A program made the position numbers and the translations under genes. Below, in pieces: positions 7,003 through 25,659 of a stretch of DNA of 36,464 bases. Source of the stretch: a virus (taxonomy: Duplodnaviria; Heunggongvirae; Uroviricota; Caudoviricetes); the IMG/VR virus record IMGVR_UViG_2645727593_000019; one strand, written 5' to 3'. The notes below the pieces were generated by a model, which was not told where the DNA came from, did no database searches, and was given only the letters and a program-made list of their open reading frames with translations. Each line of letters starts with the position of its first letter. The first letter of the stretch is position 1.

Positions 7003-9825
7003 ATGACGGCAGAGTACATCAGGGACTGGCAACAACCGCGCCACGCAGTGGGGCGTGAAGGAACGGGGATCCCCGCTCCTGAATCCGCGCTTTCCTCCTG
7101 GCTGGATGCCTACCAGGCAGAGAACGAGCGCCGACAGGAAAAGGCTGATGCGGCGTTCTCCGCCACGCCGCTGGGCAACCTGATTAATAAAAGCCTGGAC
7201 GCACAGGAAAAACAGGACAAAACCATCACGCTGGCAGGAGACGCCAGAAGACAGGCACGCGGCGCGGTGGATGAAGCCATGGCCTCGCTGCGCCTGCTGC
7301 CGTCCTATCTGCGCGATCCGCTTATTCGCCACCTCTCCTTCCTGCGCAAAAAACAGGAAGTCGATCGCCGGAAAGGCAAAAAGAGCTGGCAGGCAGAACG
7401 CTATGCACGCGGAACCCTGCGCAAAATATTCGAACGTCTGGATCGCACTGACGGACACTGGCTGACACCGGGTTATCGCTCCCTTGCCGGACGCGAACGC
7501 CTGGACGATTTGCTTTACCTGCCGCAGCTCAACAAACACCAGATACAGACGCTGGCCACCATGACGGCGGCGATGTTCAGCAGCACCTTCGAAAAACTCT
7601 GCGATGGCTTTGGTGCGACTGATGGCGAGCTGACCATGGATGTAACGCTGAAGGCGTATCAGATGCTGGCCCGCATGGCGTTACACCTGCACGCCATGCC
7701 TCCGCATTATGACGCACTGACAACAGACAAAGGCCGGAGGAACGAACCAGACACGGAGCTGCTGCCGGGCGCAATCCTTCGCCTGACCTGTGCGGAATGG
7801 TGGAAACGCAAACTGTGGCTGTTACGTTGCGAGTGGAGAGAAGAACAACTCCGCGCCGCCTGTCTGGTTTCCAGAAAAACATCGCCCTATCTGAGCCAGG
7901 ATGCGTTAAGCGAGTTTCGCGCACAGCGCGAGAAAACACGCGATTTCCTGAAAAGTTTCATGCTGGAAAACGAAGACGGGTTCACGATTGATCTTGAGAC
8001 AGTGTATTACGCGGGAGTAAGTAACCCGGTTCACCGTAAGGCAGAAATGATGGCCACCATGAAGGGGCTGGAACTTCTGGCCGAAGCCCGTGGCGACAGA
8101 GCGGTGTTTCTGACTGTCACCTGCCCGTCAAAATACCACGCAACAACGGAGAACGGTCATCCGAATCCCAAATGGAACGGGGCCACTATGCGCGACTCCA
8201 GCGATTACCTGGTTAACTCGTTTTTTGCGGCGGTCCGCAAGAAACTGAACCGCGACGGCCTGCGCTGGTATGGCATCCGCACGGTGGAGCCTCACCATGA
8301 CGGCACCGTGCACTGGCATATGATGGTCTTTGCTCATCCGGAAGAAATCGACACCATTGTGTCCCACACCCGCGATATTGCCATTCAGGAAGATCGTCAC
8401 GAGCTGGGTGATGATATTACCCCACGCTTTAAGGCAGAGTACGTCGACGGCTCAAAAGGCACACCGACCAGCTACATCGCCACCTACATCGGAAAGAACC
8501 TGGACAGCCGCGCCGTGGATGGTATCGACCCGAAAACGGGCAAGCCACGCGTTGACCACGAAACCGGAAAATCAATGGCCGAGAGCGTGGAGCGCGCCAT
8601 CGGCTGGGCGCGCCTTCACCGGGTCCGCCAGTTCCAGTTCTTTGGCATCCCCTCCCGTCAGGTGTGGCGTGAACTGCGCCGCCTTGCCAGCCAGATGGCA
8701 CGCAACCCGGAAGGCCCGCAACGGCTGAAGGATGACGCAATGGATGCAGTGCTCGCTGCCGCTGATGCCGGGTGTTTTGCCTCCTACATTGAAAAACAGG
8801 GCGGCGTACTTGTTCCACGCAAAGACTACCTGATTCGCACCGCCTACGACCTCGCAGATGAGCTGAACGATTACGGCGAACAGAGCGTACAGATTTACGG
8901 GATCTGGTCACCACTCATCGGGGAGTCTTCCCGTGTGTGCACACATCCGGATAACTGGAAGCTGGTAAGACGTAAACCGGAAGCGGAAGACAGCGCCCGC
9001 GAAAATGGTTTTGACCTTCAGGGCGGCCCTGCCGCCCCTTGGACTCGTGGCAATAACTGTCCCCGTGTACAGGAAACAGGCAACAACGGGACAGAACAGC
9101 CGGAAGAACGGCCAGCACCGTGGCCGCAGCTTCCTGACGGCGTTGAAGTAAATGAATGGATGCGCTCACTGAAACGGCACGAACGCCGGGCGCTGATGCG
9201 TTCGCTTCGTGACAAACAGGCAAAAAACAGCAGCGATGAAATGCAGAACTGGACACAGAGCCGCAAACAGCAGCGGCCTTTGCCTGATAACCACGAGTTA
9301 CTCGCTAAAGAATGGCGGGAGTCTGCTGAATCTCTCGGCCTGCATATCGGTGAACAACAGATGCAGCACCTGTTACGGGGCGGCAGTCTGTACGTTGACG
9401 GCAGCATCATTGCACCGCAGGGATTTGAAATTGTACGCAAACCGGATACCCGCCCGGACAGCCGAATCACGCAGCTCTGGCAGCGTCTGAGCCGTAATCA
9501 TGGCGTAAGCAGCACGGAGATCCGCCATAACCCGGTCGCCAGCTATCTGGCACAGCTGGGGGCATCAGACCCTGAAGCCGCCGCACGCCTGGCATCCACA
9601 CTTCAGCAGGACCAGAACACCATGAAAACACCCGTTACCGTGCTTTCTGACATGCTGCGCGCCATCCGCGACGCAGAGCACGCACAGAGAATCAGTGAAA
9701 CCACTGAACGCGCCAGCCGCAAAGCAGACCTGCTGCGGGGTGGCCTGACCAGTGGAAACAAAAAACAGACAGAAACGGGACTCACGAATCCCGTAAATGA
9801 GCAAAAAACGCGCAGCGATATATGA
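7003..9825 (+). CDS. A: rolling-circle replication initiator, P2 A family (HUH endonuclease)
   Basis: HUH motif VHWHMMVFAH (about 8305-8335) and catalytic YxxxY pair SYIATYIGKN (about 8466-8498); position after the early operon; 940 aa with a long C-terminal extension. Confidence 0.9.
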   Translation: MTAEYIRDWQQPRHAVGREGTGIPAPESALSSWLDAYQAENERRQEKADAAFSATPLGNLINKSLDAQEKQDKTITLAGDARRQARGAVDEAMASLRLLPSYLRDPLIRHLSFLRKKQEVDRRKGKKSWQAERYARGTLRKIFERLDRTDGHWLTPGYRSLAGRERLDDLLYLPQLNKHQIQTLATMTAAMFSSTFEKLCDGFGATDGELTMDVTLKAYQMLARMALHLHAMPPHYDALTTDKGRRNEPDTELLPGAILRLTCAEWWKRKLWLLRCEWREEQLRAACLVSRKTSPYLSQDALSEFRAQREKTRDFLKSFMLENEDGFTIDLETVYYAGVSNPVHRKAEMMATMKGLELLAEARGDRAVFLTVTCPSKYHATTENGHPNPKWNGATMRDSSDYLVNSFFAAVRKKLNRDGLRWYGIRTVEPHHDGTVHWHMMVFAHPEEIDTIVSHTRDIAIQEDRHELGDDITPRFKAEYVDGSKGTPTSYIATYIGKNLDSRAVDGIDPKTGKPRVDHETGKSMAESVERAIGWARLHRVRQFQFFGIPSRQVWRELRRLASQMARNPEGPQRLKDDAMDAVLAAADAGCFASYIEKQGGVLVPRKDYLIRTAYDLADELNDYGEQSVQIYGIWSPLIGESSRVCTHPDNWKLVRRKPEAEDSARENGFDLQGGPAAPWTRGNNCPRVQETGNNGTEQPEERPAPWPQLPDGVEVNEWMRSLKRHERRALMRSLRDKQAKNSSDEMQNWTQSRKQQRPLPDNHELLAKEWRESAESLGLHIGEQQMQHLLRGGSLYVDGSIIAPQGFEIVRKPDTRPDSRITQLWQRLSRNHGVSSTEIRHNPVASYLAQLGASDPEAAARLASTLQQDQNTMKTPVTVLSDMLRAIRDAEHAQRISETTERASRKADLLRGGLTSGNKKQTETGLTNPVNEQKTRSDI

Positions 9826-9870
9826 GGCGCGCACAAAACAGGCAAAAACGGGATTTCAGAATCCCGTAAA
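9772..9870 (+). repeat. two copies of the palindrome ACGGGA-N8-TCCCGTAAA (candidate centromere/operator)
   Basis: Copy 1 at 9772-9797 (inside the 3' end of A); copy 2 at 9846-9870 (intergenic, upstream of parM); centres 73 bp apart. Confidence 0.5.
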
Positions 9871-9901: not shown

Positions 9902-10861
9902 ATGAAAATTTACATCGACGACGGCTCCACCAACATCAAGCTGGCATGGACTGAGAACGGCGAACGCCGCAACGCCATCAGCCCGAACAGCTTCAAGTCG
10001 GAATGGTCTGCGCCGTTCGGTGGCTCGCAGCCTGCTAACTACATGCTTGATGGCGTGCGCTATGGTTTTGATCCGGTCAGCGATCGCTTTGTCCAGACGA
10101 CCGACACGCAATACCAGTACAGCGATGTGAATGTCATTGCCATTCATCACGCGCTGGTCAAATCAGACATCACGCCACAGGAAGTGGATGTGGTTGTTAC
10201 CCTGCCACTGAGCGAATATTTCGACACAAACGCACAGCCGGACATGGCCAACATCAACCGCAAAAAAGCGAACGTCATGCGCCCGGTGGAGTACCAGAAC
10301 GGCGAAGCATTCACTATCCGTAACGTACGGGTTATGCCTGAATCCATTCCGGCTGGCTTTAAAGCACTGGCTGACATGAGTCCGTTTGAATCCCTGCTGA
10401 TTGTGGATTTGGGCGGAACCACGCTGGATGTGGCAAAGGTTCAGGGGCAACTGGCAGGTATCAGCCAGGTGTTTTGCGATCCACACGTAGGCGTTTCTCT
10501 TATGGCCGATGCCGTACTGTCGGTGATGGCCACTAACGGTATGCGCACCAGTCACCACATCGCCAATACCATTATCGAACATCGCCATAATGAAGCCTGG
10601 CTGCGCCAGCACATCCACAATGACGCGCATTACGCCAGCCTGATGGCGGTTATTCGTGAAAAGGAAGAAACACTGAAACAACGCGTGATCCGCGCGCTGG
10701 CGGTTTTTTCGGGTTACGGGCGGGTGATGGTTGTCGGTGGCGGGGCGGAGATTGTGGCACCCGCTATCCGCGAAGCCTGCGGAGTTAATGCGACTTTCAT
10801 CGCGGACGGGGTGCCACAGTTTGCTCTGGTTAATGGGCTGTACGCAATGGACAAGGAGTAA
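9902..10861 (+). CDS. parM: actin-like ATPase, ParM/StbA family
   Basis: N-terminus MKIYIDDGSTNIKLAW and motifs DLGGTTLD, VMPESIPAG, VVGGGAE match plasmid R1 ParM as I recall it. Confidence 0.85.
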   Translation: MKIYIDDGSTNIKLAWTENGERRNAISPNSFKSEWSAPFGGSQPANYMLDGVRYGFDPVSDRFVQTTDTQYQYSDVNVIAIHHALVKSDITPQEVDVVVTLPLSEYFDTNAQPDMANINRKKANVMRPVEYQNGEAFTIRNVRVMPESIPAGFKALADMSPFESLLIVDLGGTTLDVAKVQGQLAGISQVFCDPHVGVSLMADAVLSVMATNGMRTSHHIANTIIEHRHNEAWLRQHIHNDAHYASLMAVIREKEETLKQRVIRALAVFSGYGRVMVVGGGAEIVAPAIREACGVNATFIADGVPQFALVNGLYAMDKE

Positions 10862-10865
10862 ACCA

Positions 10866-11177
10866 ATGACGACACCAACCAGACGGATAAGTTTCTATCT
10901 GAAGCCCGCCGCCGTCAAGAACGAAGGAGAAGCATGCGCCTGGCTGGACAGCCTTACACCAGAAGCCCGCAAAAGCGGCCAACGCGTGGCTTTTCTGGCC
11001 GGGCTGGCACTTCTGAAGACGAATCCGGCAGAGGCTTACCGACTGGCCGCATGGGCTGATGATGAGATGTTACCTGTGACACAAATCAGCTCAAAAAAGT
11101 TTGAAGCACAGTCTGCACCAGTGGCTAAGATAACCAGCCAGATGGCTGGGAATATCCGGGCGTTATTTCCTGAGTAA
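10866..11177 (+). CDS. parR: ParR/StbB-like DNA-binding adaptor
   Basis: Track ORF 10731..11177 trimmed to ATG 10866; N-terminus RRISFYLKPA...LDSLTPEARKSGQRVAFLAGLAL parallels R1 ParR; starts 5 nt after parM. Confidence 0.6.
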   Translation: MTTPTRRISFYLKPAAVKNEGEACAWLDSLTPEARKSGQRVAFLAGLALLKTNPAEAYRLAAWADDEMLPVTQISSKKFEAQSAPVAKITSQMAGNIRALFPE

Positions 11178-11245
11178 AAGCATCTGCGCGAAAAATGCTC
11201 ACGTTTATAGAGACAGTATCATTCCATTTGGCACACTTACTTCAA

Positions 11246-11290
11246 TAATCGATCTGTTAAACAAATAGATTGTCTATTATCTATCGATTA
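11246..11290 (+). promoter_or_regulatory. nested palindrome upstream of a promoter (candidate operator)
   Basis: TAATCGAT...ATCGATTA outer inverted repeat with inner AATAGA-TTG-TCTATT; AT-rich. Confidence 0.35.
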
Positions 11291-11304
11291 AAACGATCAA
11301 TTAT

Positions 11305-11333
11305 CTTGACAGTAATGTGCCTTTTTGTAAGAT
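11305..11333 (+). promoter_or_regulatory. candidate sigma70 promoter, rightward
   Basis: TTGACA, 16-nt spacer, TAAGAT. Confidence 0.4.
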
Positions 11334-11382
11334 CGTTCGCATTGTGAGCGACAAGATAATTGCGCGGCATTGTCCATGCAAA

Positions 11383-11526
11383 ACGCCCCAATAGCAGCAA
11401 CTATTGGGGCGTAAAACTCGGTCGGACTCACTTAACCTGATATGCGTGCCTTCCGAAGTAAATCAAAATGTGCGTCGTATATTTTATTGCTTACACGCAC
11501 CTCTGTAAAGGCACGCATATTTTTCC
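11383..11526 (+). ncRNA. structured leader or small RNA upstream of the 11542 gene
   Basis: 12-bp perfect hairpin at 11383-11412; 12-bp inverted repeat ATATGCGTGCCT/AGGCACGCATAT (11440-11451/11509-11520) enclosing an inner GTGCGT/ACGCAC pair and followed by TTTT; ends 16 nt before the start codon. Confidence 0.35.
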
Positions 11527-11541
11527 TATGAGGTAAATAAA

Positions 11542-11811
11542 GTGCGGGCTAAAACAGGTATTTGCAAGAACCCTCATCGTTATAATCCAACATTTCTGTC
11601 TCTCCCTGAATATCAAGGACAAGAAGGTCGGCACAAATGCGCTGCCTGTGCTTTTGAGCTAGGCATAAAAGATGCGCTTGAAGGACGCGCTATGGCTCAG
11701 AATGATTTAGTTTTAGCTAACATTCCGTTTAGCCAGGCTGGAACTGTAAGGCACAGAGATGCCTATGAAGCATATGTTCGTGGTTGGCGATTAATAAACA
11801 GCAACAATTGA
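11542..11811 (+). CDS. hypothetical 89-aa protein with Cys/His cluster
   Basis: GTG start with SD GAGGT 7 nt upstream; CKNPH...HKCAACAF suggests possible metal binding; followed by a strong terminator. Confidence 0.5.
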   Translation: MRAKTGICKNPHRYNPTFLSLPEYQGQEGRHKCAACAFELGIKDALEGRAMAQNDLVLANIPFSQAGTVRHRDAYEAYVRGWRLINSNN

Positions 11812-11819
11812 TACTTTTG

Positions 11820-11843
11820 AAGCGCCGATAAGGCGCTTTTTTT
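11820..11843 (+). terminator. rho-independent terminator
   Basis: AAGCGCC-GATA-AGGCGC stem-loop followed by T7. Confidence 0.8.
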
Positions 11844-11845
11844 GT

Positions 11846-12297
11846 TTGCACGATAGTGCACAAGTTTGCACAATTTTTTTGAACGACTTTTTGTACTTCC
11901 GGCCCGCGTGGTGGCTGGATCCGTCAAGGATCCGTACGTGCACAAAAAAACGCGTTTTTTCTGCGCGCAGGTGACGGGGGAACAGCCCGCGTTTCAGGGG
12001 GTAAATAGCATCCCCTGAACGATGTCGCAGCGACACAACAGAATGGCTGTATTTCTCACGCTGAGCGTGAAAAAGACGTGAGGGCTTTTGATTTGATGGG
12101 GTGACAGATAAGGCCGTCAAAATCGCACTGAGGCGGCGAGAACATGCAGTCAACGCGGTGGGATTGCGTAAGAGCCTGACCGTCGATGATGGCGATAAGC
12201 TGGAAGACGTCGTGAAATTATCTGATTGATACAGGAGCTGGAGAGCCGGGGCATAAATTTTTTATGCCCCGACGAAGCAGCAGACAAGCGAAGCGCG
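11846..12297. other. cos/packaging region (exact cos position not determined)
   Basis: Lies between the accessory island and Q as in P2; phased TGCAC repeats at about 11846-11872; GGATCCGT direct repeat; A6-CGCG-T6 palindrome at about 11944-11961; G-rich candidates near 11975-11995 and 12130-12150 loosely resemble the P2/186 cohesive end. Confidence 0.4.
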
Positions 12298-23583: not shown

Positions 23584-25214
23584 CAGTGAAATACTACGCC
23601 ATTCTGACTAATCAGGGCGCAGCACGACTGGCTAACGCGACGATGCTCGGCAGTAAGCTGAATCTGACGCAAATGGCCGTTGGTGATGCAAATGGTGTGT
23701 TACCAACACCAGACCCTGCACAAACAAAACTGATTAACCAGAAACGCATTGCACCGCTGAATCTTCTGAGTGTTGACCCTAACAATCAGAGCCAGATTAT
23801 TGCGGAGCAAATCATCCCTGAAAACGAGGGAGGATTCTGGATCCGTGAGATTGGTCTTTATGATGATGAAGGTGCACTCATTGCGGTGGCAAACTGCCCG
23901 GAAACGTACAAACCGCAGTTGCAGGAAGGCAGTGGACGCACCCAGACTATCCGCATGATTCTGGTTGTCACGAACACCGAAGCCATCACGCTGAAAATCG
24001 ACCCGTCTGTGGTTCTGGCAACCCGCAAATATGTGGATGATAAAATATCAGAGCACGAACAGTCACGACGTCACCCGGACGCCTCGCTGACCGTAAAAGG
24101 TTTTACTCAGTTAAGCAGTGCAATTAACAGTGAATCAGAAACACTGGCCGCAACACCGAAAGCGGTTAAGGCTGCATATGACCTGGCTAACGGGAAATAT
24201 ACCGCCCAGAACGCCACCACTACACAAAAAGGGATTGTTCAGCTCAGTAGCGCCACGAACAGCACGTCTGAAACGCTGGCAGCGACACCAAAAGCTGTTA
24301 AGGCGGTAATGGATGAAACGAACAAGAAAGCACCATTAAACAGCCCGGCACTGACCGGAACGCCAACAACACCAACAGCGCCACAGGGGACTAATAGTAC
24401 CCAGATCGCAAGCACGGCTTTCGTTATGGCTGCGATTGCCGCACTTGTAGATTCGTCACCTGATGCACTGAACACGCTGAACGAACTGGCTGCAGCGCTG
24501 GGCAATGACCCGAATTTTGCGACCACCATGACTAACGCGCTTGCGGGTAAGCAACCGAAGGATGCCACCCTGACGGCGCTGGCGGAGCTTGCTACATCAG
24601 CAGATAAACTCCCATATTTTACAGGGGCAGATCGTGCCGCGTTAACCGCGTTGACAAGTGTTGGACGTGCCATTCTTGGTAAAACCAGCACTCAGGGAGT
24701 TCTTGATTACCTTGGTTTAGGAGAAGCGGCGAAAAGGGATGTGGGCACGACAGTCGGAACCGTTGCCGCTGGTGATGATTTACGCATAATAGGAGCACTT
24801 CAAAAGGCAAATAATCTTTATGAGTTAACAAATAAATCTGACGCAAGAGCTAATCTTGGGTTAGGAACCGTTGCAACAAAAAACGTGGGAAATAGTGCTG
24901 GGCAAATACCTGATATGTCTTACTGGTCTTCCGTATCGGGTGGCGTTAATTTCCCTAATGGATTCCAGATGCGATTCGGTGCTATCGCTGGTAATGGTGG
25001 AAAATTATTTTCTACGCCATTTACAAATCAGTGCTATGGCATTGTTTTCGGACAAACATATGTAGCCAACTACTGGATGTTCAGCCCGATGTACAGAGCA
25101 TCTGATCTGAGTAATACCGGTTTTGCATTCATTAACAAAACCTGGTCTGGCGTTCCGGGGACAGGTGCTCAGGACGCTGGTGAATCAGTTTTTTATATTG
25201 CAGTAGGGTATTAA
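23580..25214 (+). CDS. H: tail fibre protein (expressed orientation)
   Basis: N-terminus MTVKYYAILTNQGAARLANA typical of P2-type H; repeated SETLAATPKAVKA motifs; distinct C-terminal domain. Confidence 0.85.
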   Translation: MTVKYYAILTNQGAARLANATMLGSKLNLTQMAVGDANGVLPTPDPAQTKLINQKRIAPLNLLSVDPNNQSQIIAEQIIPENEGGFWIREIGLYDDEGALIAVANCPETYKPQLQEGSGRTQTIRMILVVTNTEAITLKIDPSVVLATRKYVDDKISEHEQSRRHPDASLTVKGFTQLSSAINSESETLAATPKAVKAAYDLANGKYTAQNATTTQKGIVQLSSATNSTSETLAATPKAVKAVMDETNKKAPLNSPALTGTPTTPTAPQGTNSTQIASTAFVMAAIAALVDSSPDALNTLNELAAALGNDPNFATTMTNALAGKQPKDATLTALAELATSADKLPYFTGADRAALTALTSVGRAILGKTSTQGVLDYLGLGEAAKRDVGTTVGTVAAGDDLRIIGALQKANNLYELTNKSDARANLGLGTVATKNVGNSAGQIPDMSYWSSVSGGVNFPNGFQMRFGAIAGNGGKLFSTPFTNQCYGIVFGQTYVANYWMFSPMYRASDLSNTGFAFINKTWSGVPGTGAQDAGESVFYIAVGY

Positions 25215-25215
25215 T

Positions 25216-25659
25216 ATGGAAATGGTTTATAGCGCCTCAAATAATAGTTTTTTCGCTAAAAATGATGTGGCGAAATATGAACAGGCCGGATGGGAACTTG
25301 CTGATATTGTCGAAGTGACATATGACACTTACCTGGAATTTATTGAAGACAGAACGTTGCAAGGGAAAGTACGCATCGCGGGTGATGATGGCCTTCCCAC
25401 CTGGGGGGAAATTCCACCGCCAACTCATGAGGAACAAATTGCCGCAGCCGAACTGGAAAAGCAGCAATTGATTAATCAGGTCAACGAATACATATACAGT
25501 AAGCAATGGCCTGGTAAAGCAGCGATTGGTCGCCTGAAAGGTGAGGAACTGGCGCAATATAATTTGTGGCTGGATTATCTGGACGCACTGGAACTGGTCG
25601 ATACTTCCGGTGCGCCAGATATTGAATGGCCTACGCCTCCGGCAGTTCAGGCCAGATGA
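25216..25659 (+). CDS. G: tail fibre assembly chaperone
   Basis: Immediately after H; C-terminus APDIEWPTPP mirrors the opposite-strand paralogue. Confidence 0.75.
   Translation: MEMVYSASNNSFFAKNDVAKYEQAGWELADIVEVTYDTYLEFIEDRTLQGKVRIAGDDGLPTWGEIPPPTHEEQIAAAELEKQQLINQVNEYIYSKQWPGKAAIGRLKGEELAQYNLWLDYLDALELVDTSGAPDIEWPTPPAVQAR

Follow-up and report, generated by a model that had tools for sequence, protein, structure and literature searches.

We analyzed a short unit within a 36,464-nt stretch of viral DNA (Duplodnaviria; Heunggongvirae; Uroviricota; Caudoviricetes; IMG/VR record IMGVR_UViG_2645727593_000019). The whole stretch, termed the window here, is a P2-like prophage of E. coli. The unit carries a gene for an 89-aa Cys/His protein, which we call protein X. 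Our preferred reading, to which we assign a probability of about 0.5, is that the unit is an antisense-controlled cargo cassette and that protein X is a zinc-type DNA-recognition module linked to GATC. The case for this reading comes from the region upstream of the gene, where two predicted promoters face each other and GATC sites are clustered in related leaders, and from the genes that accompany relatives of protein X in other genomes. The elements of the cassette, in window coordinates, are as follows.

11245-11304: imperfect palindrome with 26-nt arms (11245-11270 and 11279-11304) that are 73% complementary; it adjoins the plus-strand -35 element on the 5' side.
11306-11333, plus strand: predicted promoter P+, TTGACA-16-TAAGAT, matching 10/12 consensus positions, with transcription predicted to start at ~11340.
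11340-11541, plus strand: predicted structured mRNA leader of ~200 nt.
11383-11394 and 11401-11412, minus strand: perfect arms of a GC-rich 12-bp hairpin, H2.
11440-11524, plus strand: long-range stem with an inner hairpin and a U-run; the perfect 13-nt arms are 11440-11452 and 11508-11520.
11509..11481, minus strand: predicted promoter P-, TTTACA-17-TAAAAT, matching 10/12 consensus positions and facing P+.
~11474 to ~11378, minus strand: predicted cis-antisense RNA of ~96 nt, its ends placed from P- and from the hairpin with its UUU(G) tail.
11542-11811, plus strand: GTG-start gene encoding the 89-aa protein X, with GAGG 7 nt upstream and with CKNPH and HKCAACAF motifs.
11819-11849, plus strand: intrinsic terminator that closes the cassette; a stem at 11819-11839 with 8 pairs (5 of them G-C) is followed by a T-run.

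Much of this layout had been put forward in an original prediction, made by a model from the letters of the window. It described a nested palindrome downstream of parR, a TTGACA-N16-TAAGAT promoter, a highly structured leader RNA, a GTG-start open reading frame (ORF) for an 89-aa protein with a CKNPH...HKCAACAF cluster, and a strong terminator after this ORF. Each of these is present, and the leader is highly structured both here and in 26 related clusters. Three features were missed: P-, which matches the consensus as well as P+ does, the minus-strand position of the T-rich tail of the 12-bp hairpin, and the GATC sites.

To assess conservation of the upstream region, we compared 158 loci with enough upstream sequence. 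Phage-type loci numbered 94 and formed 27 clusters (below ~90% identity); the other 64 came from other contexts and phyla. Seen from the plus strand, the P- element reads AnnnTA-N17-[A/T]GTAAAG. It occurred at a fixed place in 94/94 phage-type loci and in 0/64 of the others. In an alignment of 22 clusters, GTAAAG and the A and T of TAnnnT were invariant, and the spacer varied in sequence while its length of 17 nt stayed constant. By our estimate, this pattern would occur by chance in <1 in 1,000 such upstream regions. These data are strong evidence that P- represents a real sigma-70-type promoter, directed away from the gene.

P+ has counterparts in the related leaders, of the form TTGAnn-16/17-TAnnnT, and the predicted start sites of P+ and P- lie ~134 bp apart. 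The relatives in question, taken from genome and viral collections, share 50-63% protein identity, and their hosts include Salmonella, Enterobacter, Yersinia, Rahnella, Pantoea, Providencia, Proteus and Gilliamella. The upstream design is common to them although most of their upstream sequence differs. The palindrome next to P+ contains an inner perfect TAATCGAT/ATCGATTA pair and two symmetrically placed GATCs (11251-11254 and 11295-11298). This region is kept in the closest relatives (loci L118-L122), and the palindrome looks operator-like. A role for it as the parC/ParR centromere was considered and ruled out, as separate parC-like repeats of different sequence sit 5' of parM.

The leader folds with a predicted energy of -68.2 kcal/mol (z = -4.7), a value equalled by none of 200 shuffles, and the leaders of the 26 related clusters are similarly stable (mean z -4.6). 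Whole-leader stability was greater on the plus strand in 19 of these 26. In the minimum-energy fold, the Shine-Dalgarno element GAGGT (11531-11535) is base-paired, and access to it is poor in most of the related leaders.

H2 has a counterpart at the equivalent place in all 27 clusters, with stems that are very different in sequence yet compensating. In a 12-sequence alignment, its covariation score was 0.51, compared with 0.21 for shuffles, and 0/500 shuffles reached 0.51; controls slid along the alignment scored 0.04-0.23. Five of eight pairs had changed on both sides. These values come from a 12-sequence subset, and RNAalifold applied to the full 22-sequence MAFFT alignment gave no structure, the stems being out of register. 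The original prediction had noted a 12-bp perfect hairpin. It is indeed there, at 11383-11412, flanked by AAAAC on the plus strand and followed on the minus strand by a TTT(G) tail (hairpin plus tail, 11412..11379). The T-rich tail is on the minus strand, and we assign H2 to the antisense RNA and not to the mRNA leader alone. Read on the minus strand, H2 has 11 G-U pairs, compared with 4 on the plus strand; this difference is suggestive only, and strand tests of single hairpins were mixed. With moderate confidence, then, H2 can be regarded as the 3' hairpin of the antisense RNA and at best as a weak terminator.

Conservation of the two opposed promoters and of the covarying hairpin thus gives good support to the prediction of two transcripts, the mRNA and an RNA antisense to it in cis. 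The latter would pair with the central part of the leader (~+39 to +135), and its predicted equivalents in most other lineages measure 65-75 nt. A search of Rfam matched no family; the best hits, ctRNA_pGA1 and sar, had E values of 0.17 to ~0.2, fell below the gathering score, and covered the hairpin alone. Inspection of the Salmonella-type leader by eye showed no start-codon ORF that terminates at the conserved TGTAAAG, and a conserved leader peptide at this place was rejected. The original prediction had offered an attenuator or a small RNA as the regulator. Involvement of a small RNA appears very likely, though from the opposite strand (P- at 11509..11481); the attenuator is not conserved (see below).

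In the mechanism that we propose, P+ would produce an mRNA with a folded leader of ~200 nt in which the ribosome-binding site is paired, and P- would produce a ~96-nt antisense RNA, directed against the middle of the leader and ending in the GC-rich hairpin. Expression would be set by promoter competition (transcriptional interference) together with an antisense/leader duplex subject to processing or decay, and not by an attenuator. With GATC on promoter elements, the behaviour of the cassette would change between fully methylated prophage DNA and DNA that has newly replicated or newly entered the cell. Its product would be a small, zinc-stabilised protein of two repeats, a module that recognises DNA in connection with GATC methylation of the Dam/DpnII type.

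GATC occurs in the upstream region at 11251, 11295 and 11331. The last of these (11331-11334) overlaps the final three bases of the P+ -10 element (TAAGATC), and the one at 11295-11298 lies 7 nt 5' of the P+ -35. Across the 27 leaders, we counted 98 GATCs versus 23.9 expected from dinucleotide-preserving shuffles. This makes GATC the commonest 4-base palindrome in these leaders, above ATAT and TATA despite their AT-richness. Close relatives carry 3-5 GATCs per 250 nt, compared with ~0.5 in the flanks. Placement relative to the promoters is conserved as well, and a GATC excess there is well supported: nearly all leaders have a GATC 6-7 nt 5' of the P+ -35, and many have one in or just after the P+ -10. 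In short-type leaders, an invariant GAGATCTC or GTGATCAC lies just 3' of the P- -10, often with a further GATC in the P- spacer. The hosts of these phages belong to groups that have Dam. Given GATC at promoter elements in such hosts, it is reasonable to infer that the promoter balance is methylation-sensitive, and Dam methylation probably does influence it. Reportedly, there are precedents for Dam-sensitive promoters in pIN of IS10 and in the gtr operon of phage P22.

We next consider protein X itself. It matches phrog_3941, a family of unassigned function, with an E value of 9.1e-49 (residues 4-89 on profile positions 1-86 of 86), a full-length likeness that gives the protein a label only. 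No family in Pfam, NCBIfam or PADLOC matches protein X, none in Pfam was matched among the 45 members scanned, and every database copy is named "hypothetical protein". The family had gone unrecognised in the original prediction as well, in keeping with these results. An exhaustive HMMER search nonetheless recovered 173 cluster representatives, whereas a word-index search gave only 2 clusters. A species-level genome scan found 219 relatives in Proteobacteria, Bacteroidota, Firmicutes, Spirochaetes, Myxococcota and other phyla. Across the family, C8, H12 and C36 are invariant and C33 is present in at least 90% of members, and we infer that C8-H12-C33-C36 forms a zinc site. Further conserved residues are R30-H31, Q65, R70-H71 and G41, including two RHK motifs. 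Residues 17-48 and 57-88 form tandem 32-aa repeats (hhalign probability 98.9%, E 3e-17) with the pattern LPxxQxGxxRHKxxxxAYExGYxxG, so the monomer has pseudo-two-fold symmetry. AlphaFold2 gave a model with a predicted local distance difference test score (pLDDT) of 90. From this evidence, a real, widespread and unclassified family of zinc-type tandem-repeat modules is well supported.

Known reader domains (RAMA, SRA, winged helix, ASCH, HARE-HTH) gave no Pfam match in the 45 members scanned and no structural match. Kinship with ribosome modulation factor (RMF; PF04957), to which 11/45 members had weak hits (best E 0.0016), was rejected: hhalign against E. coli RMF gave 5% over one helix, and no PDB sequence or fold matched. 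Within E. coli, 4 alleles of the ORF occur among 36 loci, too few for dN/dS. Relatives are rare on plasmids (12 of 72,556 records), where they lie in accessory and not in obvious leading regions; a copy on an E. marmotae plasmid sits amid toxin-antitoxin and TIR genes. In Citrobacter (L028, 5308-6303), a stand-alone homologue without the GATC/antisense leader is followed by a gene for a DUF4062 protein, with an integrase gene nearby; the homologue and its DUF4062 neighbour may constitute a different two-gene module.

The link to GATC comes from the neighbours of protein X relatives. Among 80 species loci, a D12-class (Dam-like) methylase was found in 40, a DpnII endonuclease in 33 and an N6_N4 methylase in 35, with the families confirmed by Pfam on representatives. 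A D12 methylase, DpnII and an N6_N4 methylase together make up the DpnII-type GATC cassette (PMC4738411). In Firmicutes, the order is methylase - X - endonuclease - methylase 2; in Bacteroidota and others, it is methylase - endonuclease - methylase 2 - X; and in the Treponema cassette, X is convergent. Fusions to nucleases are also common. HNH or NOV_C nuclease domains (HNH, HNH_2, NOV_C) were present in 11/12 of the fusion proteins of 210-325 aa that we scanned, and longer fusions carry WYL domains or, within such cassettes, DndB/DpdB-like domains. When three X-NOV_C fusions were looked up, two proved to come fourth in a cassette after the D12 methylase, DpnII and N6_N4 methylase genes, and the third adjoins a D12 methylase and a PDDEXK nuclease. 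In the NOV_C nucleases more broadly (proteins P0215-P0315), the zinc module is N-terminal in some, and DUF3427 is C-terminal in many others, a pattern of swappable target-recognition modules. The literature that we searched contains no description of a link between this family and GATC restriction-modification, and no description of a fourth component of DpnII systems.

Taken at face value, the neighbours and fusions suggest that protein X is most likely a DNA-recognition module tied to GATC methylation. By logic, a module that is fused to a nuclease and encoded beside GATC methylases cannot steer that nuclease to self DNA methylated at GATC. DNA without this methylation (foreign DNA), or another feature of non-self, would be what it more likely marks. 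A broader proposal would join all of these elements: protein X would found a class of zinc-type, two-repeat readers of GATC methylation state, for which unmethylated GATC is non-self in cells that methylate their own GATC, serving as a DpnII accessory, in nuclease aiming, and in prophage exclusion or regulation, and the cassette, with its antisense RNA and with GATC on both opposed promoters, would be an epigenetic switch that yields protein only from under-methylated DNA. We regard this full combination as tentative and rather unlikely.

Protein X could instead be a transcription regulator that controls restriction-modification operons, prophage genes or host genes, with the prophage copy autoregulating through the GATC palindromes and GATC being merely part of an operator. 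This would account for the position of the Firmicutes gene between methylase and endonuclease, which is typical of a controller, for the GATC-containing palindromes at both promoters, and for the pseudo-symmetric two-repeat protein, which suits a palindromic site. The position is not constant: X directly precedes the endonuclease in the Firmicutes type, is the last gene in the Bacteroidota type, and is convergent in Treponema. However, frequent fusion to HNH or NOV_C is an architecture typical of target recognition and not of a regulator, and our searches revealed neither a helix-turn-helix nor another known regulator fold. The Firmicutes cassettes appear to have a controller already. Their D12 methylases bear an N-terminal HTH_17 domain, and a conserved GGTATTGCTATTATTCGAGTTTTAGAATATAAT, which lacks GATC, lies ~60-90 nt 5' of the D12 methylase gene in L030, L044, L056 and related Firmicutes loci. 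This suggests that DpnII-type cassettes in Firmicutes are autoregulated by the methylase, and it weakens the case for the module as their transcriptional controller. We consider a regulator role unlikely.

A type I toxin-antitoxin system is another possibility, and a less probable one. Here, protein X would be toxic, and the antisense RNA would be the antitoxin that silences a stable, folded and inert mRNA, as in hok/sok, symE/symR and ralR/ralA. A conserved cis-antisense promoter beside the gene, a ribosome-binding site sequestered in a very stable leader, and the location in a prophage hotspot would all fit, as would a product that is basic and probably binds nucleic acid. However, protein X is not a small hydrophobic protein, is unrelated to SymE or RalR, and has no Pfam hit, and the predicted antisense RNA leaves the ribosome-binding site uncovered. 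Furthermore, 64/158 loci lack the antisense promoter, many of them in ordinary co-directional operons, which argues against intrinsic toxicity. The suggestion in the original prediction that the protein is potentially toxic is therefore not borne out by the distribution of the family.

Very unlikely, in our judgment, is a role in anti-restriction or DNA protection, in which protein X would cover unmethylated GATC and so shield it from DpnII/MboI-type enzymes, either in phage DNA or in the genome of a host where a cassette is being established. In favour are the linkage of the gene to cassettes for GATC restriction-modification and its carriage by phages and a few conjugative plasmids; the GATCs at its own promoters could also couple expression to undermethylation. 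On the other hand, the nuclease fusions within those cassettes point to attack, and the plasmid copies are not in the obvious leading regions. The hosts of the prophage are also Dam-positive, so that its DNA is normally already resistant to DpnII/MboI-type enzymes, which counts further against protection.

The original prediction had also described a 12-bp inverted repeat with an inner repeat, ending in TTTT 16 nt before the GTG, and had proposed an attenuator that controls the protein. The repeat and its inner hairpin are present, with arms of 13 nt and a gap of 17 nt: the loop of the 13-bp stem is 55 nt, and the T's run to 11524, 17 nt before the GTG at 11542. But no such stem with a U-run was found in L118-L122, the closest relatives, which share the promoter, palindrome and hairpin, nor in any short-type leader. 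The stem is thus, on the leaders compared, specific to the E. coli lineage, and attenuation is not a conserved mechanism. That the stem and U-run stop most plus-strand transcripts, with relief by another fold or factor, is highly improbable: in its favour are the perfect 13-bp stem with four T's after it, 17 nt 5' of the start codon, and the prospect that the antisense RNA would tie up the 5' arm of this stem and could thereby act in anti-termination in this lineage, but the element is missing from relatives, a 55-nt loop is atypical of intrinsic terminators, and a terminator scan did not report it.

Several observations weigh against the preferred reading, of an antisense-controlled cassette encoding a GATC-linked module. 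In a consensus scan of the region, promoter-like hits were not above chance (2 versus 1.6 expected from shuffles), and the promoter case therefore rests on conservation in relatives. H2 was not called as a terminator in a simple scan, its T-run being too short, which leaves the 3' end of the antisense RNA uncertain; in relatives, the minus-strand tails after the hairpin read UUUCC or UCCCC. The predicted antisense RNA does not overlap the Shine-Dalgarno element in any cluster, and in the window it does not reach the start codon. Blocking its target in constrained folding caused no consistent opening or closing of the Shine-Dalgarno region, and an antisense-driven structural switch at the ribosome-binding site is accordingly unsupported. 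With this access not consistently altered in silico and the attenuator not conserved, interference and duplex processing are favoured over a structural switch. As for GATC, the 27 clusters are mutually related, so the excess does not amount to 27 independent observations. The E. coli-type leader has GATC at P+ only and none at P-, and L118 has GAGCTC in place of GAGATCTC/GTGATCAC. GATC clusters and P- are both missing from the stand-alone copies of Citrobacter and Klebsiella, and the promoters of the Firmicutes cassettes have no GATC cluster. Finally, the tie between protein X and GATC is drawn from gene neighbourhood alone, and structure searches with the protein X model returned no known fold, DNA-binding and helix-turn-helix (Xre-type) folds included.

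The setting of the cassette is that of phage cargo. The 11178-11845 region shares 99.2% identity with Escherichia phage 520873 (Peduoviridae, Xuanwuvirus). Genes around it are as follows.

7003-9825: replication protein gpA (Pfam Phage_GPA).
9902-10861: ParM.
10866-11177: ParR (Pfam Plasmid_stab_B).
Beyond the cassette, minus strand: portal protein and large terminase.

The interval from gpA to the portal gene (gpQ) is a known defence and cargo hotspot of P2-like phages, and about a quarter of these phages have a partition system there (PMC9122126). The 723-nt unit was found in 166 of 5,426 complete E. coli genomes, chromosomal in every case and with at least 95% identity throughout; the copy in E. 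coli 300709 is 100% identical. Homologues of the cassette occupy other sites as well: one lies 3' of cI in a P22-like phage, a site described previously (PMC7067206), and a Providencia phage has another between Q and its lysis genes. Having its own promoter and terminator, and occurring at three different classic cargo sites in different phages, the segment 11245-11849 is well supported as an autonomous, mobile prophage cargo cassette (moron). The earlier description of an orphan unit in the defence hotspot was apt (PMC9122126).

We noted additional features of this neighbourhood. In E. coli O111:H- 11128 (L084, 4197-4721), an additional gene for a 174-aa hypothetical protein separates the 89-aa gene from the portal gene, indicating that the hotspot is variable even downstream of the cassette. 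In Escherichia phage 503458 (NC_049341, ~24839-25554), the ORF copy is split in tblastn (residues 9-66, 86% identity, two places) and is probably frameshifted or degraded; the annotation beneath it reads only "partition protein". The gpA-type replication protein (7003-9825) is 940 aa long, and its Phage_GPA domain spans residues 179-503 only, which leaves a long C-terminal extension unaccounted for. Just 5' of parM, AAACGGGA-N7/8-ATCCCGTAAA occurs twice (9774-9797 and 9846-9870), the first copy within the 3' end of gpA. This pair probably serves the prophage partition system as parC, its ParR-binding centromere and operator. In the gap between terminator and portal gene, at 11844-11874 and 11917-11935, there are two direct repeats GTTTGCAC(G/A)AT with GTGCAC palindromes, plus two copies of GGATCCGT; these may be part of the cos/packaging region.

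The gpA-gpQ hotspot holds many untested genes, and for one of its hypothetical proteins there is now a concrete hypothesis. The family is wide, unstudied and without a known fold, and is repeatedly tied to DpnII (GATC) systems, which are among the best-known restriction systems. If protein X does read GATC methylation state, it would be a new kind of self/non-self DNA reader and could explain target choice by such cassettes and by the nuclease fusions. Opposed promoters, antisense RNA and Dam sites, kept from Gilliamella to E. coli, would also offer a tractable model for epigenetic control of a cargo gene.

Among known systems, the closest in kind for the protein are reader modules such as RAMA, HARE-HTH and the DpnI winged helix, found on restriction nucleases and in adenine-methylase operons (PMC4738411). 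Like these, protein X relatives stand alone in N6-adenine methylase operons or are fused to HNH, restriction-endonuclease-fold or ParB-like (DndB) domains. They differ in that there is no similarity of sequence or fold: protein X would be a zinc-type tandem-repeat module of ~85 aa, one that we argue does not target methylated GATC.

For the regulatory region, several precedents can be compared. IS10/Tn10 has opposed promoters, pIN and pOUT, that produce RNA-IN and RNA-OUT, and is under Dam control. Shared with the cassette are the opposed promoters, a stem-loop antisense RNA (~70 nt) against the 5' part of the mRNA, and a GATC in a core promoter element. RNA-OUT, however, covers the ribosome-binding site and start codon, whereas the predicted antisense RNA here ends ~60 nt 5' of the Shine-Dalgarno; the product here is not a transposase, and Dam dependence is a prediction. 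More generally, of the features of IS10/R1 CopA-type control, the cassette has an opposite-strand promoter in the 5' untranslated region and a conserved stem-loop but lacks overlap of the antisense RNA with the ribosome-binding site or with a leader peptide.

In phage 186 (pR/pL) and P2 (Pe/Pc), face-to-face promoters act as switches via transcriptional interference; they control lysis-lysogeny and are set by CI and Apl/Cox. The cassette resembles these in having two sigma-70-type promoters that converge over ~60-130 bp within a P2-family genome, a geometry that predicts interference. It differs in being a cargo cassette, present also in P22-like and lambdoid phages, with GATC sites. P22 gtr, agn43 and pap undergo Dam-dependent phase variation that requires OxyR or Lrp sites overlapping GATCs. 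Conserved GATC clusters in the promoter region are a common feature, and gtr is likewise a phage-borne cargo operon, but those loci have no convergent antisense promoter, and OxyR/Lrp sites were neither seen nor looked for here. With type I toxin-antitoxin loci such as hok/sok, symE/symR and ralR/ralA, the cassette has in common a cis-antisense RNA, a folded and translationally closed leader, and frequent residence in prophages, whereas protein X is without toxin-like features and its family is mostly without an antisense partner. The regulatory design predicted here is thus a combination of known kinds: opposed promoters, a cis-antisense RNA, and control by Dam sites.

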